From Eubacteriales bacterium (lineage in GTDB: Bacteria > Bacillota > Clostridia > Oscillospirales > CAG-272): a stretch of 38,346 nt of DNA. Within the stretch, counting starts at the first letter, position 1. Each line of letters begins with the position of its first letter. The notes under the pieces are model-generated. The model searched no databases. It was not told where the DNA came from and saw only the letters and a program-made list of their open reading frames with translations. Position numbers and translations under genes: made by a program. Below, one piece after another: positions 1 to 36,504 of the stretch. The stretch spans positions 1 to 38,346 of the forward strand of contig JAZMZS010000097.1 of assembly GCA_045586105.1 (NCBI GenBank), written 5' to 3'.

Positions 1-17
1 GATATACCGAGGAACAT

Positions 18-1874
18 ATGAAAAATGCTAATTGGCCTGACGTTTCATTTTTTCACAGAAGCGTCAGCTGTAATATATTCGATCATCTGGGAGCTCACAA
101 AAAAAACAACTCGATAGTTTTCCGCACCTGGGCTCCTCACGCCGACGAGGTATGGCTCGTCGGTGACTTCAACTCCTGGTCATGCTCTCACCCGATGAAG
201 AGGATAACAGAGGGCGGTGTGTGGGAATGCACGGCAGATCTCAGCGCGCTCAAGGATAAGCCGCTGTATAAATATAAGATCAGAAACGGAGACCGCATCC
301 TATTTAAAGCCGATCCGTTCGGCAGGATGATGCAGACGCCCCCCGACACTGCAACCGTATGGTATGATGCCGACGAGCCTTATTCGTGGACAGACAGCTG
401 GTGGATGCAGTCCGCAAGAGCCCGCTCAGGCGGAGATCTCTGCTCGGATCCCGTAAACATTTACGAGCTCCATGCAGGATCCTTCATGAGACATTCGGAC
501 GGTTCGTATATGAGCTACAGAGAGCTCGCTCCGATCCTCTGCTCATACATGAAGAGGATGAGCTATACACATGTGCTTTTGCTTCCGGTCGCAGAGCACC
601 ATCACGATGCATCGCTCGGATATGACGTGAGCGGCTTTTATTCGGTCACGTCCCGCTTCGGAGCTCCTGACGATCTGAAGTATTTTGTAAACACCCTTCA
701 CAATGCGGGGGTCGGTGTAATATTCGATCTCTCTATCTCCCATATTCCCTCAGACGAGCACGGCTGCTGCGAATTTGATGGGCAATGCCTGTATGAATGT
801 CCCGATCCTTCTCTGTGCGAGGGGAGACACCGATTTGACCTTTCAAGGATCGAGATCCGCTCGTTTCTGATATCAAATGCGTGTTATTATGCAAGAGATC
901 TTCATGCAGACGGCATACGCATATCGGGAGTGCGGAGAATGCTTTATCTCGACTATGGAAAAAGCCGCGGCGAGTGGAAGCCAAACCGCCACGGAGGTAA
1001 CGTCAGCTTCGAATCCGCGGCATTTATAAAGCAGCTGAACGGCTCGGTAAAGCGCCTTTATCCAAATGTAATAATGATCTCGGACGGATCCGGATCATCC
1101 GGCAGTACAGACTGCACGGATGAGGGGCTCGGCTTTGACCTTTTTATGAGCTCAGCACCTCTCAAAGCTCCGCTGTATCTTGTACAAAACGCCTCATCTG
1201 CCCGTTCACATGCCGTCATGACCGAAGCGGTAAGGGATGATATTCCCCGCCGTGTTCTTTCCCTGTCGCAAGCCTCGCTTTCTCTGTCTTCACGCTCGCT
1301 GATCGACAGAACAACAGGAGATTACGAAACGAGATTTGCACAGCTCAGGGCGTTTTTCACCTATTATATGACACTCCCGGGGAAAAAGCTCAGCTTCATG
1401 TCAAATGAATATGGGCAGTTTGCTCCGTGGAATCATGCGTCATCACTCGAATGGTTCATGCTCGACTTTGATATGCACAGAAGACTGCGCGATCTCAATG
1501 CCGACCTCGGAGAATTATATTTGTCCTGTCCTGCACTGTATAAGCATGGCGAAACGGCAAAAGCATGCATGGAGATCTGCTCTGACACATCGGATCACCG
1601 TTATTTAGCATACAGACGGGGCATCGGAGACGAGGGCGGTATTTACGTTATCATCAATCTCACCGATGATACCGTTTCCGTCAGATGCACAGAAATTCCC
1701 CTCGGAAGCTACCGCATCCTGTTATCTTCCGAGTACGAAAAATACAGCGGCAGGCGGAGCTCTTCGCTGACAGATGTGTTTATCAATTCAGTATATCCCA
1801 GGCTTGAGCTTCATCCCTTCGAGGCGCTTTTGCTCGAGCGGAGGGCAGATATCACGGATAATAAGAATAAATAG
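18..1874 (+). CDS. glgB: 1,4-alpha-glucan branching enzyme homologue (GlgB-like, GH13_9 with N-terminal CBM48); catalytic residues substituted, probably inactive
   Basis: Motifs HLGAH, FRTWAPHA, VWLVGDFNSW, KADPFG, NIYELHAGSF, MLYLDYG, PGKKLSFM; first gene before glgC. The catalytic motifs read RISGV, ISDGS and LSQAS instead of RVDAV, AEES and SHDE. Confidence 0.85.
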   Translation: MKNANWPDVSFFHRSVSCNIFDHLGAHKKNNSIVFRTWAPHADEVWLVGDFNSWSCSHPMKRITEGGVWECTADLSALKDKPLYKYKIRNGDRILFKADPFGRMMQTPPDTATVWYDADEPYSWTDSWWMQSARARSGGDLCSDPVNIYELHAGSFMRHSDGSYMSYRELAPILCSYMKRMSYTHVLLLPVAEHHHDASLGYDVSGFYSVTSRFGAPDDLKYFVNTLHNAGVGVIFDLSISHIPSDEHGCCEFDGQCLYECPDPSLCEGRHRFDLSRIEIRSFLISNACYYARDLHADGIRISGVRRMLYLDYGKSRGEWKPNRHGGNVSFESAAFIKQLNGSVKRLYPNVIMISDGSGSSGSTDCTDEGLGFDLFMSSAPLKAPLYLVQNASSARSHAVMTEAVRDDIPRRVLSLSQASLSLSSRSLIDRTTGDYETRFAQLRAFFTYYMTLPGKKLSFMSNEYGQFAPWNHASSLEWFMLDFDMHRRLRDLNADLGELYLSCPALYKHGETAKACMEICSDTSDHRYLAYRRGIGDEGGIYVIINLTDDTVSVRCTEIPLGSYRILLSSEYEKYSGRRSSSLTDVFINSVYPRLELHPFEALLLERRADITDNKNK

Positions 1875-1911
1875 ACAATAACATATATCACAAACGGAAA
1901 AGGAGAAAAAC

Positions 1912-3093
1912 ATGTTTAAGAAAAAAGAATGTGTCGCAATGCTTCTCGCAGGCGGTCAGGGCAGCCGTCTCTATGCGCTTACTCTCTCTACCGCAAAGCC
2001 CGCAGTTACCTTTGGGGGTAAGTACAGAATCATCGAATTCCCTCTCTCAAACTGCATCAATTCTCACATTGACACCGTTGGCGTACTTACCCAGTATCAG
2101 CCGCTCGTTCTCAACGAGTACGTAGGCAACGGTCAGCCGTGGGACCTTGACCGTACTTACGGCGGAGTAAAGATACTTCCTCCTTATCAAGGCAATAACA
2201 AGGCAGACTGGTATAAGGGTACCGCAAACGCAATCTATCAGAATATCAACTTTATCAAGAGATACGATCCCGAGTACGTGCTTATCCTGTCCGGCGACCA
2301 TATCTACAAGATGGATTACGCAAAGATGCTCAAAGCCCACAAAAAGAACAACGCCGACTGCACCATAGCGGTCCTTGAGGTCTCGCTTGAGGAAGCGTCC
2401 CGCTTTGGTATTCTGACGACCGACGAGAATAACAGGATCACCAAATTTACAGAAAAGCCAAAGAACCCCGACTCCACGAAGGCTTCGATGGGTATATACA
2501 TCTTCTCCGCAAAGAAGCTCTATAAGTACCTTGAAGAGGACGAGCTTGACCCGAACAGTGTAAATGACTTTGGAAAGAACATCATCCCCGCAATGCTCAA
2601 CGCGGGTGAAAAGATGTATTCGTATTCCTTCGAGGGATATTGGAAGGACGTCGGAACGCTCAAGAGCCTTTGGGAGGCTAACATGGATATGCTTGGTCAC
2701 GATCCTCACTTCTCTCTTCAGGACGAGAGCTGGAGGATATTCTCGAGAACGACCGTAAGTCCTCCTCAGTTCGTAGGTGCCGAAGCCAAGGTGGAGAATT
2801 CCATGATCACAAGCGGCTGCAGCATTTACGGTACCGTTATCAACAGCGTGCTCTCAAACGGCGTTACCGTTGAAGCGGGCGCTGTCGTGCGTGATTCGGT
2901 CATCATGGCAAACACAAAGATCTGCGCGGGCGCCAACGTGGAATATTCTATCATTGACTCAGACGTTGTGATAGGCAAGAACGCAAAGGTAGGTGCGCCA
3001 ATAGCTGACGATATAGATGTAGCTGTCATCGGCTCGGGTGTTGAAGTAAAAGATGACACCGTGATCAAAGCGGGTCAGATCATATCCAAGTAA
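1912..3093 (+). CDS. glgC: Glucose-1-phosphate adenylyltransferase, catalytic subunit
   Basis: [51 protein letters not shown]; C-terminal beta-helix; AAGGAG RBS. Confidence 0.97.
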
Positions 3094-3114
3094 TCGAGTA
3101 AGGAGGAGACACAA

Positions 3115-4248
3115 ATGAACGCTTTCGGAATTATTTTCGCTAATATACACGACGACAATCTCCCCGAGATGACCATGAGAAGAACCATCGGCTCGGTTCC
3201 CTTCGGATGCAGATACCGTCTTATAGACTTCACTCTGTCAAACATGGTAAACTCCAACATCAGTAAAGTCGGAGTTATCACTCACTATAATTACCAGTCC
3301 CTTATGGACCATCTCGGAACAGGTAAGGACTGGGACCTTGCACGCAGAAGCGGCGGTATCAAGCTTCTGCCTCCGTATATCACGGCATACGACAACACCT
3401 CGGGGGACGGACTCGAGAATTCCCGTCTTCACTCTCTCAAGGGTATTCTCAACTTCATCACGCGCTCCACAGAGGAATATGCGGTGCTATCCGACTGTGA
3501 CGCTATCTGCAATATCAACCTGAACGAGGTCTTCGAGTACCATCACGAAAACGAATCAGACATTACCATTGTAGCAACGAAGACCATGCTTCAGCGCGAG
3601 GATGTAGGTAAGCAGATAATCATCGAGGCTGACAAGAACAATATCGTACACAACTTCCTCGAGCAGACCTCCGACCTCAACGGCGAGAGACTTGTTTCCA
3701 CTAACATAATTATTCTCAAGCGAGAGCTGCTCCAGTCCATGGTCCTTGAGGCACTTTCGCACAACCACCGCCACATATACAAGGATTCCTTCAAGAATTA
3801 TCTTCCTCACAAGAAGATAATGATCTACGAGCATAAGGGCTATTACGCTACCGTAAAGAGCATCGTGGATTATTATAAGACCAACATGGAGCTGCTCGAT
3901 CCGAAGACCAGAGACGATCTCTTCAACATCGAGCACAGAGCTATTTATACTAAGGTAAGAAACAGCACACCTACCAAGTACGAGGAAAATGCCGTGGTTG
4001 AAAACTCTCTTATCGCTGACGGATGCATTATCGAGGGTACGGTCAGAAATTCCATCCTCTTCAGAGGAGTCAAGGTCGGCAAGGGCACTGTCGTAGAGAA
4101 TTCGATCATGCTCCAGGACACCTACACCGGAGAGAACGTTTCACTCAACTGTGTAATTACAGACAAGAATGTCGTTATCAGGGACGGCAGAAGGCTCTCG
4201 GGACACGAGACTATGCCCTTCTATATCAATAAGGGAGCGATGATATGA
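3115..4248 (+). CDS. glgD: Glucose-1-phosphate adenylyltransferase regulatory subunit GlgD
   Basis: GlgC paralogue lacking the GGxGxRL loop; VPFGCRYRLIDFTLSNMVNS, DHLGTGKDWDLAR; follows glgC with an AGGAGG RBS. Confidence 0.95.
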   Translation: MNAFGIIFANIHDDNLPEMTMRRTIGSVPFGCRYRLIDFTLSNMVNSNISKVGVITHYNYQSLMDHLGTGKDWDLARRSGGIKLLPPYITAYDNTSGDGLENSRLHSLKGILNFITRSTEEYAVLSDCDAICNINLNEVFEYHHENESDITIVATKTMLQREDVGKQIIIEADKNNIVHNFLEQTSDLNGERLVSTNIIILKRELLQSMVLEALSHNHRHIYKDSFKNYLPHKKIMIYEHKGYYATVKSIVDYYKTNMELLDPKTRDDLFNIEHRAIYTKVRNSTPTKYEENAVVENSLIADGCIIEGTVRNSILFRGVKVGKGTVVENSIMLQDTYTGENVSLNCVITDKNVVIRDGRRLSGHETMPFYINKGAMI

Positions 4249-5687
4249 GAAAGATACTGTTCGTAGGCGCAGAGGCTATGCCCTTTGCCGCAACGGGTGG
4301 ACTGGGAGACGTAATGGGCTCCCTCCCCGCCGCACTTAAGGAAGAATACGGCGACGATATCGACGTACGTGTCGTTATGCCTCTCTACAAGGCCGTCCGT
4401 GACGAGTGGAGAATGCAGATGAGACAGGAATGCGTCACCTTCGTGGATCTCGCGTGGAGACACGAATACTGCGGTATAAAGAGCCTCGAGAAGGACGGAG
4501 TGACCTACTATTTCATAGACAACGAAAGATACTTCAAGCGTGACGGGCTCTACGGGCATTTTGATGACGGAGAGAGGTATGCATTTTTCTGCACCTGCGT
4601 GCTCGAAATGCTCAACCGCCTCGACTACTACCCCGACATTCTGCACGCAAACGACTGGCAGTCTGCTCTTTCTGTGATCTATCTTAAGAGAAGATACGGT
4701 CTTATGGACGGCTACAGAGATATAAAGACGGTATTCACCATCCATAATATTGAGTATCAGGGAAAGTACGATTTCTCTATTCTCGGAGACGTATTCGATA
4801 TTCACGAATCTCACAAGCCGATCGTCGAATGGGAGGGCTGTATCAACCTCATGAAGGGTGCGATCCAATGCGCCGACGTTATTTCCACAGTAAGTCCCAA
4901 GTATGCCGAGGAGATCAAGAGCCCCGAGTATTCACACGGGCTTGACAAGATACTCAACGAGAATTGGTACAAGCTCAAGGGGATCCTCAACGGCATAGAC
5001 TACGTTTACTACAATCCCGCAAAGGACACCGCGCTCAGAACGAAATTCTCAAAGAGGACAGTAGAGAAAAAGGCACAGTGCAAGGTCGATTTCCAGAAGG
5101 AAATGGCACTTCCTGAGAATCCCGATATCCCCATGTTCGCAATGATCACGAGACTTGCCTCTCACAAGGGGCTCGATATCGTGTGTGATATGATATACGG
5201 GCTTCTCGAGCAGGATATTCAGTTTGTGGTACTCGGCACGGGTGAAGCGAAATACGAAGGCTTCCTGCGTGAGCTCGAGTACAGATTCCCCGACAAAGTA
5301 CGCTCTATCATCAAATACGACCGCGACCTTTCAAAGAGGATATATGCGGCAGCTGATGTATTCCTCATGCCCTCCAAAAGCGAGCCATGCGGACTCTCGC
5401 AGATGATCGCGTCCCGCTACGGCGCTATTCCCGTAACGAGAGAAACGGGCGGTCTTTACGATTCCATCAAGCATTATTATATTGACGAAAAGGGCAAAAT
5501 GCACGGTAATGGCTTTACCTTTGCAAATTACGGAGCAACAGAGCTCTATGACTGCGCTATGAAGGCGTATAACATCTGCAAGGATAAAGATAATTATATA
5601 AAGCTCGTACAAAGGATCATGGGAACTGACTTCTCCTGGTCAAAGTCTGCAAAGGAATATATGCAGATGTACGACGAGCTGAACTAA
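4245..5687 (+). CDS. glgA: Glycogen synthase (GT5)
   Basis: TGGLGDV, HANDWQ, FTIHNIEYQG, ITRLASHKG, MPSKSEPCGLSQM, TGGLYD; ATGA overlap with the glgD stop. Confidence 0.97.
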   Translation: MRKILFVGAEAMPFAATGGLGDVMGSLPAALKEEYGDDIDVRVVMPLYKAVRDEWRMQMRQECVTFVDLAWRHEYCGIKSLEKDGVTYYFIDNERYFKRDGLYGHFDDGERYAFFCTCVLEMLNRLDYYPDILHANDWQSALSVIYLKRRYGLMDGYRDIKTVFTIHNIEYQGKYDFSILGDVFDIHESHKPIVEWEGCINLMKGAIQCADVISTVSPKYAEEIKSPEYSHGLDKILNENWYKLKGILNGIDYVYYNPAKDTALRTKFSKRTVEKKAQCKVDFQKEMALPENPDIPMFAMITRLASHKGLDIVCDMIYGLLEQDIQFVVLGTGEAKYEGFLRELEYRFPDKVRSIIKYDRDLSKRIYAAADVFLMPSKSEPCGLSQMIASRYGAIPVTRETGGLYDSIKHYYIDEKGKMHGNGFTFANYGATELYDCAMKAYNICKDKDNYIKLVQRIMGTDFSWSKSAKEYMQMYDELN

Positions 5688-5725
5688 TATAAGGTCAAGG
5701 ACACACAAGGAAGGATTTTAACACA

Positions 5726-8149
5726 ATGGCAAAGACACAGAAGGAAATCAAAGAACTTCTCGAAACCAAGCTGTCGAGAAACTTCGGCTGCTCAAGTGCC
5801 GATGCTTCGGCTGAGCAGATGTACAAGGCAAGCGCACTTACTATCAGAGATATGTTGGCGCAGAAGAGAAACGATTTCAAAAAGGAAGTCAACAGAGAAG
5901 GAGAAAAGCGCGTTTACTACATGTGCATGGAGTTCCTCATGGGACGCTCTCTCAAGACCAATCTCCATAACCTCGGACTTGAAAAGGCGTACAAGGCGGC
6001 TCTGAAGAGCATGGGCTTTGATCTTGAGGATCTTTATGAGCTCGAGCCCGATGCAGGACTCGGAAACGGCGGTCTTGGCAGACTTGCGGCTTGCTTTATG
6101 GATTCTCTCTCATCACTTGATTACCCCGCTACAGGATTCTCTATCTGCTATGAATACGGACTTTTCAAGCAGAAGATCATAGACGGCATGCAGGTCGAAA
6201 TGCCTGATGTATGGCTCCCCGGAGGCGAGGTATGGCTCGTTCCGAGAACCGACAGGATCTACCACGTCAAGATCGGCGGAAGGATCAAGGAGATCTGGGA
6301 GGACGGCAGATGCCACATCGAGTACGTAGACTGTGACGAGATTGAGGCTGTTCCCTACGATATGATGGTATCGGGTGCCGACTCTAAGGCTGTAAACCAG
6401 CTCAGACTCTGGAAGGCAAGAAACATCAACAACTTCAACATGAATCTTTTCAGCCAGGGTGAGTACGCAAGAGCGATCAAGGACAGCACCAATGCCGAGA
6501 TAATATCCAAGGTTCTCTACCCCTCAGACAACCATTACGAAGGAAAGCTGCTCAGACTTACCCAGCAGTACTTCCTTGTTTCCGCATCGGTTCAGAGCAT
6601 TCTGCGCGACCATATGGCGGTTTACGGAACTCTTGACAATCTCGAAGAGAAGGTAGCTATCCATATAAACGACACACATCCCGCACTCTGCATTCCGGAG
6701 CTTATGAGAATACTCATAGACGATCATTGCTACGATTGGGATACTGCCTGGGGTAAGGTCTGCAAGATAGTTTCTTACACCAACCACACCGTCCTTCCCG
6801 AGGCTCTCGAGACCTGGAACGAGGACCTATTCAAGCTCAAGCTCCCGAGGATCTACTCTATCGTCAAGGAGATCAACGAAAGATTCTGCAACGAGGCATG
6901 GCAGAAGTTCCCCTCCAACTGGGATAAGATCTCGGCAATGTCGGTCATTGCCCACAATCAGATACGCATGGCAAACCTCAGCGTTATTGCTTCTCATACC
7001 ATCAACGGCGTTTCCAAGCTCCACTCGGATATTCTTGTAGATACAGTATTCAAGGATTTCTACAAGATGTATCCCGACCGCTTCACCAACGTAACGAACG
7101 GTATCGCACACCGCCGCTGGCTCTGCTACTCCAATCCCAAGCTTGCCAAGCTCATTGAAGAGCTTATTGGCAAGGGCTACAGAAAGGATCCCGAGCAGCT
7201 CGACGATCTGAGAAAGTTTGCAGACGACTCTGAGGTCCTCGACAGACTTGCCAAGATCAAGCTCGACAACAAAAAGGCATTTGCAGAAAAGCTCTACAAG
7301 AAGCAGGGCGCGGTTATCGACCCCAATTCTCTCTTTGATGTTCAGATCAAGAGACTTCACGAGTACAAGAGACAGCTTCTCAACACTCTTAACATCATTG
7401 CTCTTTACGTCGAGCTCAAGGAGGATCCGAACCTCGATATACAGCCACAGACCTTCCTCTTCGGTGCGAAGGCTGCGCCCGGATACTATATGGCTAAAGA
7501 TATAATCAAGCTTATCTGCTATATCCAGAAGGATATCGAGAAGAATCCGAAGATCAAGGAGAAGCTCAATGTCGTATTTCTCGAGGACTACAACGTCAGC
7601 CTCGCCGAAGCTCTTGTGCCCGCAGCCGAGGTATCCGAGCAGATCTCTCTTGCAGGTAAAGAAGCAAGCGGTACAGGCTGCATGAAGCTTATGATGAACG
7701 GTGCACTTACGCTCGGCACCTATGACGGTGCAAACGTCGAGATGGTTGCCGCAACAGGGCATGACAATATGTTCATATTCGGCATGGAATGCGACGAGGT
7801 TGAGGATCTCTGGAAGAAGGGCTATAACGCTTACGATCATTATGCCAACAACCCGAGAGCACGCAAGGCGGTAGACTACCTCAACATAGGCTTTGCTGGT
7901 CAATCGTTCTCGAACATCGGCAATTACCTGCTCAATTCTCAGTACGGTGTCGCAGACCCGTATATGTGCCTTGCTGACTTTGATTCATACACGCAGGCGC
8001 GTGAGAAGCTTCTCGCCGCATACGCAAAGAAGGAAGAGTGGAACAGGATGTCGCTTATCAACATTGCGGCTTCCGGCTTCTTTGCCGCTGACAGAAGCAT
8101 CAACGAATATGCTCAGCGCATCTGGGGACTTAAGCGTCTCGATAAATGA
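5726..8149 (+). CDS. glgP: Glycogen/alpha-glucan phosphorylase (GT35)
   Basis: DAGLGNGGLGRLAACF, INDTHP, YTNHT, NGIAHRRW, KRLHEYKRQ, PLP-lysine motif EASGTGCMK. Confidence 0.97.
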   Translation: MAKTQKEIKELLETKLSRNFGCSSADASAEQMYKASALTIRDMLAQKRNDFKKEVNREGEKRVYYMCMEFLMGRSLKTNLHNLGLEKAYKAALKSMGFDLEDLYELEPDAGLGNGGLGRLAACFMDSLSSLDYPATGFSICYEYGLFKQKIIDGMQVEMPDVWLPGGEVWLVPRTDRIYHVKIGGRIKEIWEDGRCHIEYVDCDEIEAVPYDMMVSGADSKAVNQLRLWKARNINNFNMNLFSQGEYARAIKDSTNAEIISKVLYPSDNHYEGKLLRLTQQYFLVSASVQSILRDHMAVYGTLDNLEEKVAIHINDTHPALCIPELMRILIDDHCYDWDTAWGKVCKIVSYTNHTVLPEALETWNEDLFKLKLPRIYSIVKEINERFCNEAWQKFPSNWDKISAMSVIAHNQIRMANLSVIASHTINGVSKLHSDILVDTVFKDFYKMYPDRFTNVTNGIAHRRWLCYSNPKLAKLIEELIGKGYRKDPEQLDDLRKFADDSEVLDRLAKIKLDNKKAFAEKLYKKQGAVIDPNSLFDVQIKRLHEYKRQLLNTLNIIALYVELKEDPNLDIQPQTFLFGAKAAPGYYMAKDIIKLICYIQKDIEKNPKIKEKLNVVFLEDYNVSLAEALVPAAEVSEQISLAGKEASGTGCMKLMMNGALTLGTYDGANVEMVAATGHDNMFIFGMECDEVEDLWKKGYNAYDHYANNPRARKAVDYLNIGFAGQSFSNIGNYLLNSQYGVADPYMCLADFDSYTQAREKLLAAYAKKEEWNRMSLINIAASGFFAADRSINEYAQRIWGLKRLDK

Positions 8150-8225: not shown

Positions 8226-10133
8226 ATGGAAAACTTTATCTGCGCCGATCTTTGCGGCGGAATATGCCGCAGCATAAGGATCAAAAAAAATATAAACGGA
8301 CGTGACGTTTCGGCACTAAACGCATTCAGTGCCGAGAGCCGGGTTACGTTTTCTCTCTGTGCTCCGAGAAGAGCAGGCGTGACATACGTCAGCATGCTTA
8401 TCGCAAGAGACGGAGAGCAACAAATCGAATACAAAATGCCCTTGGTCTCAGATTATGCAAAGGATGATGAGTACTCTATCACTCTCGATCTTGGCGAGCT
8501 GTGCGGTGCAGAGGGCTCGGGACTGTTCTATTACAAGATACGCATATGCACGGGAAATGACGTGTTTTTTACAAACAGCGTAAACAATGTTGATTTTACG
8601 CTCACGAGAGCCGAGCACGCTTCCTTCCGAATGCTCGTCCACTCTCCCGAGTTCAGCACGCCCGACTGGGCATATTCCTCTACTATGTATCACGTTTTCG
8701 TGGACAGATTTTTCAAGGGAAGCCGAGAGGTTCCTCTTCGCGAGGATGCAGAGCTCAACGATAACTGGGAAAACGGAATACCGCAGTATGCCCCCTACCC
8801 CGGTGCGCATCTCGAAAACAACGAATTTTTCGGCGGTACTCTTTGGGGTATATGCGAAAAGCTCGATTATCTTGAGCAGCTCGGAATAAACACGATATAT
8901 CTCTCACCGATATTCAAGGCATATTCCAACCACAAATACGATACCGGGGATTATCTTGAGGTCGACGAGATGTTCGGAGGAGAAGAAGCATTCGGCCATC
9001 TTATCGAAGAAACGAAAAAGCGCTCGATGAAGGTCATTCTCGACGGTGTATTCAATCATACCGGTGATAACAGCCGTTATTTTGATAAATACAGAAAATA
9101 CGGCAAAACGGGAGCATACGTGAACCGTGACTCGGAATACCGCGGATGGTTCTGTTTCCATCCCGATAACACCTATGAATCATGGTGGGGGATCACGATA
9201 CTTCCCAAGCTCAATCATCAGAACGAAAAATGCCGCCGCTTCTTCACAGGCAATGGCGGTGTTATCGAGAAGTATATAAAGGAAGGGATCGGAGGCTGGC
9301 GTCTTGATGTTGCAGACGAGCTTTCGGATGAATTTCTTGATGAGCTGAGAGAAACTGCAAAAACCACAGACAGCGAAGCGATCATCATAGGCGAGGTCTG
9401 GGAAAACGCCGCAGATAAGATCGCATATGCAAAGCGCCGCAGGTATTTCAGAGGAAAGCAGCTTGACAGCGTGATGAACTACCCTTTCAAGAACGCTCTG
9501 ATAGAATATATAAATTCGGGCGAATCCGATATACTCTACAACGAGCTTGTGGATATATATTCTTCTTATCCCGCATGCGTGAGCAATGTGCTGATGAACC
9601 TGCTCGGTACTCATGATACCGAAAGAATACTGACCGTACTTTCGGATGATGACCCAATGGGTAAGTCCATAGATGATATTGCCCGCTCAAGGCTCACTCC
9701 CGAGCAAAAGAAAAAAGCTGTACAAAAGCTAAAGGTCGCAAGCACGCTCCAATACACCGTCTACGGCTTCCCGTCCGTGTTCTACGGCGACGAAGCCGGA
9801 ATTGAAGGCTACGGTGATCCCTTCTGCAGAAAGCCCTTCCCGTGGCACGATATCAACGACGAGCTCCTCGCTCATTACAGAGCACTCGGTAGGATACGGC
9901 ACGAGAATCCTGCCTTTGCGGGAGGTGAGTTTGCAGTAACGCTGCATAACGGCGCGCTTCTCTCCTACACTCGCCGCAAAGATGATAATGAAATACTCGT
10001 ATATTCAAACGCAGGTGAAACAGCACGCATCATTCACCTTGACGGAACGTATACCGATCTTTTGACAGGTAAGACGCATTCAAAGGAAACGGCACTGCAG
10101 CCAATGTCTGCAATGATTCTGAAAAGACAATAG
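8226..10133 (+). CDS. GH13 neopullulanase/cyclomaltodextrinase/amylopullulanase-type glycoside hydrolase (likely glycogen catabolism)
   Basis: YHVFVDRF, SNHKYDT, LDGVFNH; intact triad GWRLDVADE / IGEVWE / LGTHDT; FYGDEAG, DPFCR. Confidence 0.9.
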   Translation: MENFICADLCGGICRSIRIKKNINGRDVSALNAFSAESRVTFSLCAPRRAGVTYVSMLIARDGEQQIEYKMPLVSDYAKDDEYSITLDLGELCGAEGSGLFYYKIRICTGNDVFFTNSVNNVDFTLTRAEHASFRMLVHSPEFSTPDWAYSSTMYHVFVDRFFKGSREVPLREDAELNDNWENGIPQYAPYPGAHLENNEFFGGTLWGICEKLDYLEQLGINTIYLSPIFKAYSNHKYDTGDYLEVDEMFGGEEAFGHLIEETKKRSMKVILDGVFNHTGDNSRYFDKYRKYGKTGAYVNRDSEYRGWFCFHPDNTYESWWGITILPKLNHQNEKCRRFFTGNGGVIEKYIKEGIGGWRLDVADELSDEFLDELRETAKTTDSEAIIIGEVWENAADKIAYAKRRRYFRGKQLDSVMNYPFKNALIEYINSGESDILYNELVDIYSSYPACVSNVLMNLLGTHDTERILTVLSDDDPMGKSIDDIARSRLTPEQKKKAVQKLKVASTLQYTVYGFPSVFYGDEAGIEGYGDPFCRKPFPWHDINDELLAHYRALGRIRHENPAFAGGEFAVTLHNGALLSYTRRKDDNEILVYSNAGETARIIHLDGTYTDLLTGKTHSKETALQPMSAMILKRQ

Positions 10134-10135: not shown

Positions 10136-10177
10136 AAAAAGCACCCGGAAGCATATGCTTCCGGGTGCCGTTTTTTT
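10136..10177. terminator. Bidirectional intrinsic terminator between the GH13 gene and groEL
   Basis: Perfect 28-bp palindrome GCACCCGGAAGCATATGCTTCCGGGTGC (10141-10168), flanked by A5 and T7, between convergent genes. Confidence 0.85.
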
Positions 10178-16196: not shown

Positions 16197-16271
16197 AAAC
16201 GTATAAGGATTTTTTCTGTTGATATTCTCACTTTGACTATCCTTCAATTTCAACACAAGGAGCAACTACCC

Positions 16272-18326
16272 ATGGAAAAGATGATCACCAAAAACATCAG
16301 AAACATCGCCCTGCTGGGTCACGGCGGAGGCGGAAAGACTTCTCTTGCTGAATCGATGCTGTATCTGTGCAAGTGCACCGACCGTCTCGGCAAGACTCCC
16401 GAAGGAAATACTGTATGCGATTATGACGCAGAAGAAATAAAGCGCGGCTATTCGATCAGCGCGTGCACAGCACCCGTAGTATGGAAGGATATCAAGATCA
16501 ATATTCTCGACACCCCCGGATACCTCGACTTCCAGGCTGAGGTACGCCAGGCGGTAAGAGTTGCTGACGCTGCCATTATCGTCGTAGACGGCAAGGCAGG
16601 CATCGAGGTCGGCACTGAGCTCGCATGGGATTATGCAACCGATGCGGGGATCCCCAAGGCGTTCTTTATCAACAAGTTCGACGATCCCGAGGCAAGATTC
16701 AACCGCGTATTCACTTCCCTGCGCGACACCTTCGGCGTTGCTGTATGTCCCGTCATTATACCTATGATAGACGTTGACAAGGTCGTGGGCTTCCTTAATC
16801 TCGTCGATATGAGAGTTCTCGTTTACGACAAGGAAGGAAACCTCGTTGAGGGCTCTATTCCCGAAAACTATATCGAGACCGCAAATCACTACCGTGACAT
16901 GCTTCTTGAATCGATAGCACAGACAAGCGATGAGCTGATGGAGAAGTATTTTGCAGGTGAGGAGATCACCAATGACGAGTCACACGAGGCTATCCACGAG
17001 GGTATCATCCACGGAAGCATCGTTCCCGTATTCTGCGGAGCTGCTACCAAGATGTGGGGTGTAAGAACACTCATGGACACCATCAACGCTTCCTTCCCCC
17101 GTCCTACTGCAAGAGTAAACGAAAAGCTCGCTGACGGAACGGAAAAGGCTATAGAAAAGGAAGGCGGAGAGACTGCACTCTTCGTATTCAAGACTGTCGC
17201 TGACCCCTTCGTCGGTAAGATGTCCTTCTTCAAGGTCATGAACGGCGAGGTCAAGCGTGATATGACACTCACCAACACCACAACGGGGGCACAGGAGAAG
17301 CTTGCGCGCATCTACATAGTACGCGGAAAGAAGCAGATCGAGGTCGATTCTCTTGCTTGCGGTGATATCGGTATGACCGCAAAGCTCGTTAAAACCAACA
17401 CCAACGACACTCTGACCGCAGGCTCAAACATCAAGTATATGCCTATAACCTATCCCAATCCCTATATGGCAAAGGGTATCGTTCCCGCAGCCAAGGGAGA
17501 CGAGGACAAGATATCTCAGGGTATCGCAAAGCTGCTTGAGGAGGATCTCACCGTTAAGTATGAGAACAACGCCGAAACCAAGCAGATGCTCATCTACGGT
17601 ATCGGTGATATCCATCTTGACGTTCTCGTTTCAAAGCTGAAATCCAGATTCGGCACGAGCGTAAATCTTACAGACAGAAAGATCCCCTACCGCGAGACTA
17701 TCACCAAGTCCTGTGACGTCGAAGGAAAGCATAAAAAGCAGTCGGGAGGTCACGGTCAGTACGGACACGTTAAGATCAAGTTCTCTTACGGAGAGGCTGA
17801 GGGTCTTACCTTCTCAGAATCCACATTCGGCGGATCGGTACCCAAGAACTTCCATCCCGCAGTAGAAAAGGGACTTCTCGAATCAATGCAGAAGGGTGTT
17901 GCGGGATATCCTCTGATCCACCTTGCGGCAGATCTTTATGACGGCTCTTATCATGACGTTGACTCGAACGAGCTTTCCTTCAAGATGGCAGCATCCCTCG
18001 CTTACAAAGAAATGCTCAACAAGGCAGGCCCTGTTATTCTCGAGCCTGTCGGAGAGCTTAACGTCACAGTTCCCGAGGCTATGGTCGGTGATGCTATGGG
18101 TGACCTGAACAAGCGCAGAGGCGTTATAAAGGGTATGAACCCCGCAAAGAAGAAGGGATATACTACCATCGATGCTGACGTTCCTCAGGCAGAAATGGCT
18201 GATTACACGATAGCACTCAGAGCATTCACTCAGGGTCGCGGATTCTTCGAATACGAGGTTACGGGTTACGAGCAGGTGCCCGCTAACATAGCTCAAAAGA
18301 TCATCAAGGAAAACGCAGCTGAATAA
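16272..18326 (+). CDS. fusA: Elongation factor G-like protein (EF-G II / EF-G2 paralogue)
   Basis: IRNIALLGHGGGGKTS, LDTPGY, INKFD, HKKQSGGHGQYG, DGSYHDVDS, ILEP, TQGRG; not in the str operon; AAGGAG RBS before ATG 16272. Confidence 0.92.
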   Translation: MEKMITKNIRNIALLGHGGGGKTSLAESMLYLCKCTDRLGKTPEGNTVCDYDAEEIKRGYSISACTAPVVWKDIKINILDTPGYLDFQAEVRQAVRVADAAIIVVDGKAGIEVGTELAWDYATDAGIPKAFFINKFDDPEARFNRVFTSLRDTFGVAVCPVIIPMIDVDKVVGFLNLVDMRVLVYDKEGNLVEGSIPENYIETANHYRDMLLESIAQTSDELMEKYFAGEEITNDESHEAIHEGIIHGSIVPVFCGAATKMWGVRTLMDTINASFPRPTARVNEKLADGTEKAIEKEGGETALFVFKTVADPFVGKMSFFKVMNGEVKRDMTLTNTTTGAQEKLARIYIVRGKKQIEVDSLACGDIGMTAKLVKTNTNDTLTAGSNIKYMPITYPNPYMAKGIVPAAKGDEDKISQGIAKLLEEDLTVKYENNAETKQMLIYGIGDIHLDVLVSKLKSRFGTSVNLTDRKIPYRETITKSCDVEGKHKKQSGGHGQYGHVKIKFSYGEAEGLTFSESTFGGSVPKNFHPAVEKGLLESMQKGVAGYPLIHLAADLYDGSYHDVDSNELSFKMAASLAYKEMLNKAGPVILEPVGELNVTVPEAMVGDAMGDLNKRRGVIKGMNPAKKKGYTTIDADVPQAEMADYTIALRAFTQGRGFFEYEVTGYEQVPANIAQKIIKENAAE

Positions 18327-18400: not shown

Positions 18401-19642
18401 TCAGTCTCTGTTGAAAATATCTCTTGTGTAGACCTTTTCCTTAACGTCATCAAGAACGCTGTCATATCTGTTGGCTATAATTGCGTGGCTCATGCTTTTG
18501 AATCTTTCAAGATCGTTTACTACCTCACTGCCAAAGAAGGTGGAGCCGTCCTCGAGTGTAGGCTCATAAACGATGACCTTGGCGCCCTTTGCCTTGATCC
18601 TCTTCATTACTCCCTGAATAGCACTCTGTCTGAAGTTATCGCTGTTGCTCTTCATAGTAAGTCTGTATACACCAACAACGCTTTCCTTCTCAAGCTTGGC
18701 ATCCCAATCGCCGTTAGCAAGGCTGTAGCCTGCGGTATGAAGAACTCTGTCCGCGATAAAGTCCTTTCTCGTTCTGTTCGACTCAACGATAGCCTCGATA
18801 AGGTTCTCGGGAACGTCAGAATAGTTTGCGAGCAGCTGCTTTGTGTCCTTAGGCAGGCAGTAACCGCCGTAACCGAAGGAGGGGTTGTTATAATGCTCGC
18901 CAATACGGGGGTCAAGGCAGACACCCTTTATGATCTGCTGAGTATTGAGTCCCTTGAGCTCCGCATATGTATCAAGCTCGTTGAAAAAGCTTACTCTGAG
19001 GGCAAGGTAAGTATTGGCAAACAGCTTTACTGCCTCGGCTTCGGTAAAGCCCATGTAAAGAATATCCACATCCTCTTTGATCGCTCCGTGCTTAAGAAGA
19101 CCCGCAAACGTCTTTGCAGCCTCAACAAGACGTTCGTCCTCAAGGTCGGTTCCCACGATTATTCGGGATGGATAGAGGTTATCGTAGAGCGCCTTGCTCT
19201 CGCGCAAGAACTCGGGGCTGAATATGATATTGCTGCTGCCCGTTTTTTCCCTAATGCTCTTGGTGTATCCCACGGGAATGGTAGATTTGATTATCATTAC
19301 AGCATCGGGGTTGACCTTCATCACGGTGGAAATAACATTCTCTACCGCGGAGGTGTCAAAATAGTTCTTCGTTGAGTCGTAGTTCGTAGGCGCCGCTATA
19401 ACTACAAATTCCGCATCCTTGTATGCCGCCTCAGCATCGAGTGTGGCTACAAGATCGAGCTCCTTTGTGGCAAGATACTCTTCTATCTCATTATCCTGGA
19501 TAGGTGATTTTTTGTTGTTGATCATCTCTACCTTCTCGGGTATGATATCAACTGCCGTTACGTGATTGTGCTGTGAAAGAAGAACGCTGATGCTCAGACC
19601 TACGTATCCTGTTCCTGCTACTGCGATATTATGCTTTTTCAT
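18401..19642 (-). CDS. ugd: UDP-glucose 6-dehydrogenase
   Basis: [40 protein letters not shown], catalytic GGYCLPKD; start set at ATG 19642 (GAGGT RBS). Confidence 0.95.
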
Positions 19643-19667
19643 TATACTTACCTCTCTATATGTCCTT

Positions 19668-20729
19668 TCAATTATAAAACTCTTTATACCACTCGGCAAA
19701 TCTGCGCAGACCTTCCCGCAGTGTGGTGGTGGGCTTGAAGCCGAAATCTCTCTCAAGTGCACTTGTATCGGCAAACGTCACCTCGACGTCTCCCGACTGC
19801 ATGGGAACCAATTTCTTGTGCTTTTCAAAATCGTAGTCCGATGGCAGCACTCCTGCTCTCACAAGCTCCTGCTGGAGGATATCAACAAAGTCAAGCAGGT
19901 TCTCGGGATTGCTGTTTCCTATATTGTAGAGCGAGTAAGGCGCCGAGCGCAAGCCGTTTTCCTCGATCGTGCTCTCGGGTGCCTTCTGCATCACTCTGAG
20001 TACACCTTCAACGATGTCATCTACGTATGTAAAGTCACGCTTGCAGTTTCCGTAATTAAATATCTGTATATCCTCTCCGCGTACAAGCTTGTCGGTAAAT
20101 CCGAAATAAGCCATATCCGGACGCCCTGCAGGTCCGTATACGGTAAAGAACCGAAGGCCTGTGCAAGGTATACCGTAGAGCTTTGCATAAGCGTGAGCCA
20201 TCAGCTCATTTGACTTTTTTGTTGCGGCATACAGTGACACGGGATTATCCACCTTGTCATCTACCGAATAGGGGATCTTCGAATTACTTCCGTACACAGA
20301 GGAGCTCGATGCATAGACAAGATGCTCTACTCCCTTGCTTCCGTTATCATACGAATGCCTGCAAGCCTCAAGAATGTTATAAAAACCGATAATATTTGAA
20401 TCAATATAAACGCCTGGATTTGTGATCGAATATCTTACCCCTGCCTGTGCGGCAAGGTTTACAACTATATCGGGACGATACCTCTCGAATATTCCGTCAA
20501 TAACGCTCTTATCCGATATAGAGTCTCTGATGAACACGAACCGCTCGGAGGGGATCAATTCACCGAGCCTGTACTCCTTGAGGCTGACGTCGTAATAATC
20601 GTTGACGTTATCTATACCGATGACGGTCACATCCGATCGCCCGAGAAGCCTCTTTGCCAGGTTTGCTCCGATAAAGCCCGCCGCGCCTGTCAAAAGGACT
20701 GTTTTGTTTGAAATATCAATTGTTTTCAC
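19668..20729 (-). CDS. NAD-dependent epimerase, UDP-glucuronate 4-epimerase type
   Basis: [55 protein letters not shown]; GTG start. Confidence 0.88.
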
Positions 20730-20754
20730 TATCTATCCTACCTTCCGAAAGTCA

Positions 20755-21732
20755 TTATCTTCTGCCGAGGATCTTCAAGACAAGCCTTTTGGCTTTATCC
20801 GTATACTTGTTCATTTTTTTCTTGAACCTATATGAAAAGCCGTATTCGCTGTATTTTTTCGCGATCTTCTCAAATGTAAGTCTGTGATAATCATCCCAGA
20901 ACCGTCCTCTCTCGGGGGGACACGGAAACGGTCCCTTGAGCGGAGGCTGCATGCTGTCCTCAAGCTTTGTCTGCTTGAAATCCACACTATGGCAAGCTCT
21001 CTCGAAATATGTCCTGCCGAGCTCATTGTTTACAAGAACAAGCGAAACACCCTTATCATCGTTAAAGCCGGGTGCCGCCTTGTCAATTCCCCAATAATCG
21101 GCAATAGTGATATCTGCGGGATGCATTACTCCTTTATACGGGCACTTATAGCAGCTCGGTCTGAGAATGTTGTGGGCATAAAACAGTGAAGTATATACAC
21201 GACTGTCTATCTGCTTTCCGTTATCAAGATCTAACGTTTCTATATGGGTAGACCATCCGAAGCGCTTGTTTCGGAAATCAAGGTGCGTGACCTTTGCTCC
21301 GTTCTTGCTCTCCTGCCATGTCAGGTAATCCCTCAGGACGAGTGGGCTCGGAACTCCGTGACATACGATATCCATGCACAAAAGTCCATCATATTCCCCT
21401 CCGAGGAACGCCTTAAGTCCTGCTATCTGACATGAGGTTCCGCTGAAAAGGACCTTTTTGCCTTCGAGCAGATCGACCTTGACGCTTCTGAATATATCAG
21501 ATGTATTACTCTGTACGTATTTTGATCCGCGCATACGGTCACGCTCATCAGCCGTGGCTGCTCTGAGGTGATGCGCAGTAAAGGAATCGTCGAGCACACA
21601 TCCGTATACGATTCCGCCCTCCTCAAGTATCAGATCGGATACTGCTGTAAATATCCCTCCCGATCTGGAAGCCGCACGGATCACTTCGTCCTTATGCTTG
21701 ACAGCATATACGATTGGCTTTTCAAAGTTCAT
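20755..21732 (-). CDS. Coenzyme F420 hydrogenase/dehydrogenase beta-subunit (FrhB/FdhB) family flavo-Fe-S protein
   Basis: SRSGGIF, RGSKYVQS, GTSCQIAGL, DIVCHGVPS, LRPSCYKC, DITIADYWG. Confidence 0.85.
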   Translation of the reverse strand: MNFEKPIVYAVKHKDEVIRAASRSGGIFTAVSDLILEEGGIVYGCVLDDSFTAHHLRAATADERDRMRGSKYVQSNTSDIFRSVKVDLLEGKKVLFSGTSCQIAGLKAFLGGEYDGLLCMDIVCHGVPSPLVLRDYLTWQESKNGAKVTHLDFRNKRFGWSTHIETLDLDNGKQIDSRVYTSLFYAHNILRPSCYKCPYKGVMHPADITIADYWGIDKAAPGFNDDKGVSLVLVNNELGRTYFERACHSVDFKQTKLEDSMQPPLKGPFPCPPERGRFWDDYHRLTFEKIAKKYSEYGFSYRFKKKMNKYTDKAKRLVLKILGRR

Positions 21733-21758
21733 ATAGACCTCTTGATATCATATAATAA

Positions 21759-21998
21759 TTACGCCTTGATATATCCCTTGTTCGTCTGGTCAAGCTTGAA
21801 TGCGCAGACGGACAGGCACTTGAGACACCTGATGCAAATACCCGCATCTATCTCGGGATACAGAAATCCTTCCCCGTCCTCTTTTGCGTATATCGCACCG
21901 ACAGGACATACAGAGAGACATGCAAAGCATCCGCAGCAGTTTTCCTTTTTTTCGTATAACCGAGGGGTCGGATCCTCTTTTTTATTCGATCTATCCAT
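21759..21998 (-). CDS. 2x[4Fe-4S] ferredoxin-like protein
   Basis: CCGCFACLSVCP and CIRCLKCLSVC; own GGAGG RBS. Confidence 0.85.
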   Translation of the reverse strand: MDRSNKKEDPTPRLYEKKENCCGCFACLSVCPVGAIYAKEDGEGFLYPEIDAGICIRCLKCLSVCAFKLDQTNKGYIKA

Positions 21999-22014
21999 TA
22001 TTAGAAAGCCTCCG

Positions 22015-23430
22015 TCATTTTTTGAAGATCATTTTTTTGCCCTTGGCAAGTATCATCTTCATTTCCTTGCGGTTGATCACAAGGAACAAGAGCGCACCTG
22101 CCGCGCTCAGGCACAGGTTCATCACAAGTCCCGAGAAAACACCCGCTATCGTTACGGCAAGAGCAAGAGCAAACAGCGACATAAACTCAAGCCATTTTAT
22201 CGTGACCTTCATCGTTGCTTTTGTGTGATATGCACGAAGCACGAACATTACAAAGAATGCGACAAACGTTGATATTGAAGCGGCATGAAGTCCGATGAAT
22301 TTGATAAGGACAAGGTTTGCCGCCGCATTTATCAAAGCTCCTACAACGCTGGTAATGCCTGCCTTCTTCGTCTGGTCGCTCTTAAGATAGCCTACACCGA
22401 AGAAGGATGAAAACGCCTGAAAAACAGTACCGAGATATAAAAATGATACGTAATCAGCCGAGGTTATATAGCTCTCACTCATTACAAGAGCAATAAAAAG
22501 CTTGGTAAAGGGTATCAAAAACAGCAGCATCGTAAAGGACAGCTTGTAGTAATATCTGAACACGTTAGTATAAAAGCCGTCATTGGAATCGTCCTTGTCT
22601 CCGACTGCCGTATCCTGCCATGATTCATAAAAAATGTTATAAAGCATCTGCAGGATGGATGGAAATTTGTTGGCAACGCCGTAAATACCGTTTGCGGCGC
22701 TTCCGATAAAGAACTTTATAAAATACTTATTGAGAGAGCTGATCGCCCACCAGTTAAGTCTGTTCGGAATAAGCGGAACAGAAAAACCGAGCAGCTCCTT
22801 TTGTGTCTTGAAGGATCCGAGCTTAAGATCGAGCCTTCTCAGACGTTTTTCGAATATCAGCATCGCAAGTATTCCTACGATGTTACCGATTATCGTGCTC
22901 TGGAACAGTGCGATGATGCCCATGTCATAAATGACTACCTGTATGACGTTGAGAACCAGGAAGACGAGCGTATTCAGTATACCCGAAAGGGCGACAAGCT
23001 TCTGGTTATTTAAGCCTCTGAGAAGCTTCTGTACAGTCTGGAAAAGTCTGCCGACTATCAAGAGCCACAGGAAATACTCAAAATACGCGATCGGGAAGAA
23101 GAAATTTACCACTATCATCATCAGCGACCACAGGATCGACGTGAATGTGATAAACTTATAGACTGCCGAAATATACTCTCCCGACTGCTCCTTGTTGCGC
23201 ATCATCCAGGTATATGCACCGTCGGATATCTGCAAGGTTATCAGAGGAGTAAGCAGACTGATATTGGATATTATCAGCTCGTATTCTCCCATATCCGTGG
23301 GAGATATATAATATGTGTAAAAAGGTACGATAAAGAAATTGAGCAGCCTTGGACCGAATGTTCCGACGGCATATATCAATGTTCCTATCAATAACTTTTT
23401 ACTCTTGCTCTGAGAGTTTGTACTGCCCAC
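22015..23430 (-). CDS. wzx: Wzx-type oligosaccharide flippase (MOP superfamily)
   Basis: Many TM helices; FFIVPFYTYYISPTDMGEY, LLGFSVPLIPN, GIYGVANKFP. Start probably GTG 23430 right after the upstream stop; the ORF track gives 23451. Confidence 0.85.
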   Translation of the reverse strand: MGSTNSQSKSKKLLIGTLIYAVGTFGPRLLNFFIVPFYTYYISPTDMGEYELIISNISLLTPLITLQISDGAYTWMMRNKEQSGEYISAVYKFITFTSILWSLMMIVVNFFFPIAYFEYFLWLLIVGRLFQTVQKLLRGLNNQKLVALSGILNTLVFLVLNVIQVVIYDMGIIALFQSTIIGNIVGILAMLIFEKRLRRLDLKLGSFKTQKELLGFSVPLIPNRLNWWAISSLNKYFIKFFIGSAANGIYGVANKFPSILQMLYNIFYESWQDTAVGDKDDSNDGFYTNVFRYYYKLSFTMLLFLIPFTKLFIALVMSESYITSADYVSFLYLGTVFQAFSSFFGVGYLKSDQTKKAGITSVVGALINAAANLVLIKFIGLHAASISTFVAFFVMFVLRAYHTKATMKVTIKWLEFMSLFALALAVTIAGVFSGLVMNLCLSAAGALLFLVINRKEMKMILAKGKKMIFKK

Positions 23431-23431
23431 C

Positions 23432-25617: not shown

Positions 25618-25641
25618 CAGATCCTCCCCTAAATAAGCCGA

Positions 25642-26883: not shown

Positions 26884-26893
26884 ATTACACCTT

Positions 26894-27973: not shown

Positions 27974-27991
27974 ATAACGCTCCAATGAAAG

Positions 27992-29071: not shown

Positions 29072-29095
29072 TTTACCACCCCCGATGGAAACGCT

Positions 29096-30007: not shown

Positions 30008-30033
30008 ATTTACCTCTCTGTTACAAAAGATAC

Positions 30034-31071: not shown

Positions 31072-31090
31072 ATGATCTCTCCGAATTATC

Positions 31091-32391: not shown

Positions 32392-32436
32392 AATTGTTTC
32401 CTCTGATCAAATCAAATTCGGAGCATCTCTCCGTTG

Positions 32437-36286: not shown

Positions 36287-36309
36287 ATTGCTCTCCTGAG
36301 CACTCGGAC

Positions 36310-36500: not shown

Positions 36501-36504
36501 CGGA

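Follow-up and report, generated by a model that had tools for sequence, protein, structure and literature searches.

In Escherichia coli, the glycogen branching enzyme GlgB, a member of subfamily GH13_9, depends on D405, E458, H525 and D526 as its catalytic residues, and in Firmicutes the GlgD protein of the same pathway is a duplicate that pairs with an active GlgC of its own family. According to an excerpt of PMC13515694, GH13 enzymes operate by a double-displacement mechanism with a covalent intermediate on the nucleophile Asp. Part of a review (PMC10395257) calls GlgD a regulatory subunit and reports the gene layout glgBCDAP-amy from lactobacilli, and excerpts of two other papers (PMC13666283, PMC6243121) describe plant proteins, namely the inactive GH13 isoamylase subunit ISA2 and the CBM48 proteins PTST and FLO6, that are non-catalytic and shape alpha-glucan by partnering or targeting active enzymes. 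Branching enzymes of another subfamily, GH13_8, occur in bacteria as well, for example in Anaerococcus prevotii (cited in PMC13666283). The present analysis concerns a 38,346-nucleotide stretch of DNA, here called the window in its entirety, from contig JAZMZS010000097.1 of an Eubacteriales gut bacterium (Oscillospirales, CAG-272; assembly GCA_045586105.1), and in particular the open reading frame (ORF) at 18..1874 on the plus strand, which is the first gene of an operon in the order glgB-glgC-glgD-glgA-glgP and, with a following amylase gene, shares the layout known from lactobacilli. With a probability of roughly 60%, this ORF is the original operonic glgB, whose catalytic ability was lost after the arrival of a GH13_8 enzyme and which is now a retained pseudoenzyme, probably one that binds glucan.

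The ORF begins with ATG at position 18 and encodes 618 aa with no internal stop. Pfam recognizes CBM_48 at aa 24-101 (64 bits; 87..320, plus strand) together with GlgB_N, in line with the uninterrupted frame and CBM48/GH13 scaffold described in an earlier, sequence-only reading of this DNA. The Pfam Alpha-amylase domain is matched over its first portion only (aa 176-248, 36.8 bits) and Alpha-amylase_C remains below threshold (20.7 vs 21.2 bits); taken together, Pfam, the AlphaFold2 model and Foldseek give the domain order CBM48, GH13 (beta/alpha)8 barrel and C domain. The NCBIfam equivalog models for GlgB all match the ORF from end to end and all score it under their cut-offs (NF008967, 474.6 against 577; NF003811, 459.1 against 741; TIGR01515, 405.9 against 463.95). 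Intact relatives score 774-877 with NF008967 (6/6), and a GlgB equivalog cut-off is still passed by 4/8 of the other dead forms tested, dead or degenerate meaning here that the Asp/Glu/Asp (D/E/D) catalytic triad is incomplete. The ESM Atlas, which has no model of the protein, labels it 'GlgB, Bacillota'.

All three catalytic positions of the ORF are replaced. The GlgB of E. coli K-12, in the sequence of its annotated record, served as the reference for residue mapping. In the MAFFT alignment, the nucleophile D405 corresponds to S303 (nt 924-926), the acid/base E458 to D356 (nt 1083-1085), and H525/D526 of region IV to Q418/A419 (nt 1269-1274); these are exactly the substitutions and nucleotide positions that the sequence-only reading had picked out by eye. 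Likewise, a HMMER alignment to the solved GlgB 9u77_A (E 2.7e-103) pairs RVDAV with RISGV, IAEES with ISDGS and LSLSHDE with LSLSQAS of the ORF. On the plus strand, region I reads DLSISH (726..743; consensus DWVPAH), region II GIRISGV (912..932; GLRVDAV), region III ISDGS (1077..1091; IAEES) and region IV LSQAS (1263..1277; ISHDE). E. coli Y300, D335, H340 and R403 are retained as Y202, D237, H242 and R301, of which the region I residue H242 is gone from most other dead copies. An active-site loop is also eroded, reading DLFMSSAPLK (1137..1166, plus strand) for the consensus DLKWNMGWMN, with FMSSAP in place of KWNMGW at aa 376-381; as had been noticed before, MLYLDYG (308), GDY..RFAQLRA (434-445) and PGKKL (454) survive. 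In the ORF sequence, no substitute acidic residue is found within three residues of S303 or of Q418/A419.

The register of these substitutions is borne out by an AlphaFold2 model built on a 121-sequence alignment (mean predicted local distance difference test score, pLDDT, 89.7; predicted template modelling score 0.93). Strands 233-239, 299-303, 352-356 and 412-416 of the model end at or just before the positions of regions I-IV, which places S303, D356 and Q418/A419 at the GH13 catalytic sites, at the ends of beta4, beta5 and beta7; this register is derived from the strand ends and the sequence alignments, the Foldseek output being without residue-level pairs. By Foldseek, the model has a template modelling (TM) score of 0.92 against Cyanothece BE1 and 0.85-0.87 against the E. 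coli enzyme. The least confident internal ten-residue block is 361-370 (pLDDT 54), blocks 381-400 and 421-430 (75) are also among the lowest, and these blocks coincide with the eroded loops. In an independent public sequencing run (X1), representing a strain about 98.7% identical, no difference is listed at codons 303 and 356, codons 418-419 lying in a gap of the contig cover. Judged from these residues, the protein is predicted to be unable to form a covalent glucosyl-enzyme intermediate via retaining double displacement.

The source genome (G000; 2.61 Mb in 277 contigs, 86% complete, 1.15% contaminated) contains only two matches to TIGR01515, the ORF and a 662-aa frame on the minus strand of contig C169 (703-2691). 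The latter protein is closest to human GBE1 (4bzy, E 1.2e-210) and to enzymes of rice and other eukaryotes, and carries the motifs FRFDGV, IAEDMSG and ESHDQ; its affinity and motifs together identify it as a GH13_8 enzyme with catalytic residues in place. The GH13_8 gene is present in 5/5 genomes of the genus at 71-84% identity, and it has many relatives at 70-88% identity, the named ones being assemblies of Clostridia, Acutalibacteraceae, Ruminococcaceae and Oscillospiraceae. The ORF is the single GH13_9-like gene of the source genome, and a PF00128 search across that genome found no extra GH13 gene besides the operon amylase. Most likely, branching in this organism would be done by the C169 enzyme, as far as its sequence tells. 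The expectation of an active branching enzyme elsewhere in the genome thus held, except that the enzyme is not a GlgB of the same subfamily, and the alternative raised earlier, a poorly branched glucan, is unlikely because an intact GH13_8 gene is present. As for other candidates, a GH57 branching enzyme was rejected, the sole match in the source genome reaching 23.9 bits in a 239-aa frame. Contig C169 is 4.2 kb long, and none of the six frames flanking the GH13_8 gene (0/6) has a Pfam match.

Comparable losses occur in relatives, where they had been left to be checked. Among the matches listed, the nearest database homologues of the ORF are 58, 58, 48 and 44% identical, with others following. 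The triad is present in 109/120 of the nearest homologues listed and incomplete in 11/120; since so many have D/E/D, the substitutions in the ORF are not a matter of chance. None of the seven closest homologues has the triad: in the clade of eight formed by these and the ORF, the nucleophile position holds S, A, S, S, N, S, C and C, and the acid/base position holds D and once G. Two other dead forms belong to clusters of 19 and 30 near-identical full-length members. A scan of metagenomes with a three-sequence profile found no relative.

The co-occurrence of GH13_8 genes and dead GlgB was surveyed in 401 genomes of the family, with GH13_8 called at E <= 1e-150 and GH13_9-like genes at E <= 1e-50. 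GH13_8 was found in 69 and a GH13_9-like gene in 316: the two occur together in 25 genomes, GH13_8 alone in 44, GH13_9 alone in 291 and neither in 41; the catalytic columns were read in about 100 of the 316 GH13_9 matches, including all those in the 25 genomes with both. In these 25, the GH13_9 gene is degenerate in 14 and D/E/D in 10, the remaining one being a truncated 541-aa frame without region I. GH13_8-negative genomes of a first sample of relatives have D/E/D in 24/24 cases with a GH13_9 gene. Twenty further GH13_8-negative genomes were picked for their lowest scores as the likeliest to be degenerate. D/E/D was read in 15 of them and is compatible with the fragments in 2 others, a further 2 could not be read, and 1 is degenerate. 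The last (G220; 89% complete) reads C/E/D, and three other genomes of its genus have GH13_8. A scan of genome contigs listed 80 loci, 78 of them D/E/D and 2 degenerate; when 30 genomes from these loci were used as a prediction test, GH13_8 was found with 2/2 degenerate copies (one being G001 again, the other new) and with 1/28 D/E/D copies. A genome from another family of the same order (G038) also has a degenerate copy and GH13_8. The association of GH13_8 with dead GlgB is strong in raw counts, from samples chosen in different ways and related genomes that are non-independent; under phylogenetic control it is not significant, and as such it is not demonstrated.

In 15/16 cases, the degenerate copy immediately precedes glgC and has the same orientation, which indicates descent from the operonic glgB as opposed to an additional copy. 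The earlier likening of the ORF to the GlgC/GlgD pair of paralogues is therefore loose, as the dead gene is the original and not a duplicate, and the active enzyme is of GH13_8. Dead operonic GlgB arose independently at least seven times. GlgC, encoded next to it and slow to evolve, gives a tree on which the dead state requires 10 changes, at least 7 of them on starred branches, and a tree that unites the 13 dead-operon rows is worse by 532 log-likelihood units in the approximately unbiased (AU) test (p 9e-50); a GlgB tree that includes close intact relatives requires 6 state changes. In genus g81, four genomes have near-identical GlgC, one with an intact GlgB and three with a dead one, in which the region I His has become R, Y or W and the nucleophile C, E or C; these losses are recent, separate events. 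A 59-row GlgB tree had a starred branch with 11 dead sequences to one side of it, and the single dead clade that this seemed to offer was rejected as long-branch attraction because the tool itself flagged it, the tree with closer intact relatives splits the group, and the GlgC tree and AU test contradict it.

Which parts of the protein survive the loss can be seen from a search of the window-clade profile against 1.84 billion cluster representatives (50%-identity clusters). Of the best 150 matches, 148 were new, 93 with D/E/D and 55 without the triad, so the phenomenon is not rare, with the reservation that this list is tilted to dead forms by a profile built from dead forms. A comparison of 52 degenerate with 93 intact representatives covered 109 columns that are at least 90% conserved in the intact set, and 69 of these stay at 80% or above in the degenerate set, 26 are intermediate and 14 are lost. 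The lost columns (H242, D303, A304, E356, S358, D419, E420, K425, W200, Q203, P195, V239, G380 and Y406) take in every position of the catalytic triad, and those retained include W54, W479 and PGKK.FMG.E. Dozens of columns are 96-100% conserved across the 52 dead representatives, versus 18-40% in neighbouring active-site columns. Mean conservation, given as degenerate versus intact, is unchanged in CBM48 (0.52 vs 0.50), in the last part of the barrel (0.57 vs 0.56) and in the C domain (0.45 vs 0.42), and that of regions II-IV falls from 0.65 in the intact to 0.44 in the degenerate set. Within the window's clade, too, CBM48 is best kept (61% mean pairwise identity) and regions II-IV worst (41%).

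Table 1 of PMC10254366 gives W159 in CBM48 and W586 as belonging to surface glucan sites IV and I of the E. coli enzyme. Their counterparts in the ORF are W54 (nt 177-179) and W479 (1452..1454, plus strand), both Trp in 50/52 dead representatives, the other 2 being gapped at the position of W54. The nucleophile is replaced in 42/52 dead representatives, by G, S, E, N, C and others, and in 12/52 only one of the three catalytic positions is changed.

The dead glgB is under purifying selection and is not drifting. Compared with the strain of run X1, it differs by 11 synonymous and 9 non-synonymous changes at the 1,497 sites covered, which gives a pN/pS of 0.24 (binomial p 0.0015 against neutrality). 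Between G000 and G002, in both of which the nucleophile Asp is gone, pN of the dead glgB is 0.34 with pS saturated; the same pair gives pN 0.048 for glgC and pN 0.108 with a synonymous divergence (dS) of 1.77 for the GH13_8 gene, and with that dS the omega of the dead glgB is about 0.26 or less, roughly 4 times that of GH13_8 and 9 times that of glgC. A maximum likelihood (ML) codon model for genus g81 gives omega 0.138 for the dead trio vs 0.077 for the intact quartet. In a neutral simulation, a stop was gained in 200/200 runs by 0.1 substitutions per site and identity had dropped to 9% at 1.8, as against 49% identity and zero stops observed for the dead glgB of G000 and G002. The comparison of rates that had been proposed to tell retention from neutral decay hence came out as purifying. 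An ML omega of 0.067 for the g1 trio is not trusted, the tree length being 9.5. The X1 strain also has an in-frame 3-nt deletion at window positions 1585-1587, in the C domain of the dead GlgB.

The protein is a pseudoenzyme in that it is homologous to an active family, misses the catalytic residues, and belongs to a lineage of genes under purifying selection after the loss. The earlier proposal of a pseudo-branching enzyme retained for a non-catalytic role is supported by the residue register, the relatives, the purifying selection and the second enzyme. A plausible course of events would start with a lineage that came to carry a second, eukaryote-type GH13_8 enzyme, which would have made the operonic GlgB redundant; the latter would then have lost its active site and kept its fold, CBM48 and surface sites. 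The pseudo-GlgB would be translated as the first cistron of the operon, may bind alpha-1,4-glucan chains through CBM48 and the surface sites without cutting them, and, once bound, could change through targeting, shielding or spacing how the growing particle is worked on by GlgA, the GH13_8 enzyme or GlgP. Overall, the trajectory seems to run from redundancy through active-site loss to deletion, a step reached in many lineages. In a more specific version, dead GlgB is a dedicated non-catalytic CBM48 glucan-binding subunit or targeting factor that works with GH13_8 (or GlgA or GlgP) and sets the spacing of branches or the turnover of the particle. It would then be a bacterial equivalent of ISA2 or PTST/FLO6, convergent at least seven times on GH13_8 takeover; this version is rather doubtful.

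A number of observations weigh against retention for a function. The strain-level pN/pS comes from 20 differences on contigs of depth 3.4-4.5, although sequencing errors would raise the non-synonymous count and not lower it, and Nei-Gojobori dS is saturated for most deep pairs. The dead genes also change fast: between G000 and G002, GlgC is 91% identical and dead GlgB only 49%, and 11 dead rows have GlgB/GlgC distance ratios of 1.68-2.9, compared with 1.06-1.58 for 35 intact rows. In an independent-pairs test on the GlgC tree, 7 pairs were usable, with GH13_8 pointing in the same direction in about 4 and in the opposite one in about 0 (median p 0.125); on the GlgB tree the test is not significant (median p 1). 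Moreover, 44/69 GH13_8-bearing genomes are without any GH13_9 gene, so that the role of the dead protein is dispensable in many lineages, and no GlgB remnant was found in the 1.5 kb upstream of glgC in 5/5 inspected GH13_8-only genomes, where the operon opens cleanly at glgC. Some dead copies are short (ORFs of 351, 483 and 541 aa), the window's clade no longer has the Trp of E. coli surface site VI, and the 52 dead representatives have no new shared motif, with heterogeneous replacements at the catalytic positions. The main rival is a relic on its way out, in which redundancy was followed by loss of catalysis and a slow decay to deletion, the constraint being indirect, either to avoid a misfolding or aggregating product of a well-expressed first cistron or to maintain translation into glgC. 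Such a relic accords with the graded series among GH13_8-bearing genomes (intact 10, degenerate 14, truncated 1, absent 44), with the cleanness of the operonic deletions, with the heterogeneous replacements, and with a GlgB/GlgC ratio that climbs from 1.24 for intact copies in GH13_8-negative genomes, through 1.43 for intact copies alongside GH13_8, to 1.85 for dead copies, a rise also consistent with the trajectory from redundancy to deletion. It accounts poorly, however, for a pN/pS of 0.24 at strain level and an omega no higher than about 0.26 where synonymous sites are saturated, for the dozens of almost invariant columns in dead representatives next to variable active-site columns, and for the absence of stop codons inside the matches of 20 examined genomes, given that selection for an open frame alone would not restrain amino-acid change. 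We consider the relic account unlikely, though it deserves to be taken seriously.

It might also be asked whether the ORF still encodes an enzyme, with weak or altered activity that uses D356 and another residue, or with a different substrate. The retention of Y202, D237, H242 and R301 of the -1 subsite and the conservative nature of the change to D356 speak for this, as do the 12/52 other 'dead' copies changed at a single catalytic position; yet RISGV has no carboxylate at or beside the nucleophile position, the region IV His-Asp is Gln-Ala, the KWNMGW loop has disappeared, most dead representatives have another residue in place of the nucleophile, and the GH13 mechanism, as set out in the excerpt of PMC13515694, needs a covalent intermediate on that very Asp, which leaves residual catalysis very improbable. 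That errors of assembly or binning created the substitutions, or that the GH13_8 contig is foreign, gains some colour from the fragmented, incomplete and slightly contaminated assembly of 277 contigs and from the short 4.2-kb contig carrying GH13_8. Against an artefact stand the agreement of the independent X1 contigs at codons 303 and 356, similar losses in relatives from other assemblies, the 19- and 30-member clusters of two other dead forms, and the presence of GH13_8 in all five genomes of the genus with identity declining from 84% to 71%, and its probability is close to negligible. The reading of a retained, probably glucan-binding pseudoenzyme remains the preferred one.

The relatives present further variations on GlgB. 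Genome G019, which is GH13_8-negative and has a D/E/D operonic GlgB (L022), contains a second, degenerate GlgB-like paralogue of 604 aa (C64:27392-29206; L180:393-2207, minus strand) in which the region I His is lost, the region II Arg is Cys, KWNMGW is lost and SHDE reads RPTD, with W54 and W479 retained, which shows that degenerate GlgB-like proteins occur also beside an active GH13_9; other genomes of its genus likewise have 2-3 matches. G297 has two degenerate GlgB-like genes (L148, L150), one of 621 aa with no glgC within its 1.5-kb flanks and one of 351 aa immediately before glgC; a single TAA is present within the GH13_8 match of this genome. Otherwise well-scoring GlgB matches in G312 (C23:22323-24035) and G237 (C1:133506-135386) have a single in-frame stop each (TGA and TAA, respectively), and these may be true pseudogenes or sequencing errors. 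In many representatives, the GlgB-like region lies within longer proteins of about 1,000-1,500 aa, in one case 2,610 aa, and family genome G206 has a 1,156-aa open frame (C52:26052-27809); the long proteins are presumably fusions with other glucan enzymes.

The operon around the ORF is intact, as had been stated from the sequence, and all its genes lie on the same strand with short spacers. The ORF is preceded in the window by 17 nt, which include, read directly, the Shine-Dalgarno-like GAGGAA (10..15, plus strand) 2 nt before the ATG. It is followed on the plus strand by glgC, encoding glucose-1-phosphate adenylyltransferase (1912..3093; NF003670, 587 bits, cut-off 470), glgD for the non-catalytic GlgC-like subunit (3115..4248; TIGR02092, 367 bits, cut-off 236.6), glgA for glycogen synthase (4245..5687; NF001898, 608 bits, cut-off 603), glgP for glycogen phosphorylase (5726..8149; TIGR02093, 1071 bits, cut-off 552.9) and amy (8226..10133), which by domain matches and motif reading is a neopullulanase/cyclomaltodextrinase-like GH13 gene with GWRLDVADE, GEVW and HDTER motifs in place. 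By consensus scan only, a strong bidirectional terminator-like hairpin closes the operon at 10141..10168, and none was found in the glgB-glgC spacer (1875-1911). GC content at third codon positions is 0.558 in the dead glgB vs 0.608-0.632 in glgC, glgA and glgP (window 18-8146), and the lower value would fit weaker codon-usage selection.

Beyond the operon, a 697-aa protein of the elongation factor G (EF-G) family is encoded at 16233-18326 (plus strand) apart from ribosomal genes and is probably an EF-G paralogue. A surface-polysaccharide cluster occupies 18401-35829 on the minus strand, comprising genes for a UDP-glucose dehydrogenase-like protein, an FrhB-like protein with a polysaccharide pyruvyl transferase, a flippase, a Wzy-like polymerase, five GT4/GT1-type glycosyltransferases, an initiating sugar transferase, a GNAT acetyltransferase, a DegT-type aminotransferase and a PglF-like dehydratase. 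No ORF of at least 90 aa is present in 19775-20754 (about 1 kb) or in 35830-36554 (about 0.7 kb), the latter holding tRNA-Pro (GGG) at 36211-36286 (minus strand); Rfam and ARAGORN detected no other RNA gene in the window.

Of greater interest than the single case is the wider pattern, a recurrent death of the operonic GlgB alongside another branching enzyme, with the fold and CBM48 under selection. It amounts to a natural repeated experiment on the displacement of one enzyme by an analogue from a different subfamily, and the outcome suggests that the non-catalytic part of GlgB, CBM48 and surface sites, is separable and can be kept by selection on its own. In practical terms, where a metabolic reconstruction of gut Clostridia takes glgB to be the branching step, it may assign that step to the wrong gene.

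Among known systems, bacterial GH13_9 GlgB (E. coli 1m7x/4lpc, Cyanothece BE1 5gqu, Vibrio 9u77) shares with the ORF the order of CBM48, GH13 barrel and C domain, the place as first gene of glgBCDAP and the Trp residues of surface sites I and IV, at 29-33% identity and model TM scores of 0.85-0.92; the ORF differs in that the nucleophile, acid/base, region IV His-Asp and KWNMGW loop are replaced, and it falls under every NCBIfam GlgB cut-off. In the literature searched (full text, most subscription journals being outside coverage), no paper describing a catalytically dead bacterial GlgB was found. Faecalibacterium duncaniae FdBE2 (PDB 21jh/21kg, released 2025-12-31), a second divergent GH13_9-like enzyme from a related group of gut Clostridia, has a TM score of 0.88 and 29% identity to the ORF, and may be relevant to the novelty of a dead GlgB. 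Of the bacterial GH13_8 enzymes, the C169 protein is a representative and the likely catalytic replacement, and the ORF itself is not one of them.

The GlgD of Firmicutes, found here at 3115-4248, resembles the ORF as a degenerate homologue of a pathway enzyme that sits in the same operon and is kept by selection. GlgD is a duplicate, however, whereas here the ancestral gene itself died and the active enzyme is from another subfamily; a duplicate standing beside an active enzyme of the same subfamily, as in the GlgD/ISA2 type, is not what the genome contains, with its one GH13_9-like gene in the ancestral operon slot and an active GH13_8 enzyme. Plant ISA2 and PTST/FLO6 are eukaryotic, belong to other subfamilies and have demonstrated partner binding, in which they differ from the ORF. 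Even so, as non-catalytic proteins that shape alpha-glucan through active enzymes, they would provide the best functional analogy for the protein encoded at the head of this operon.

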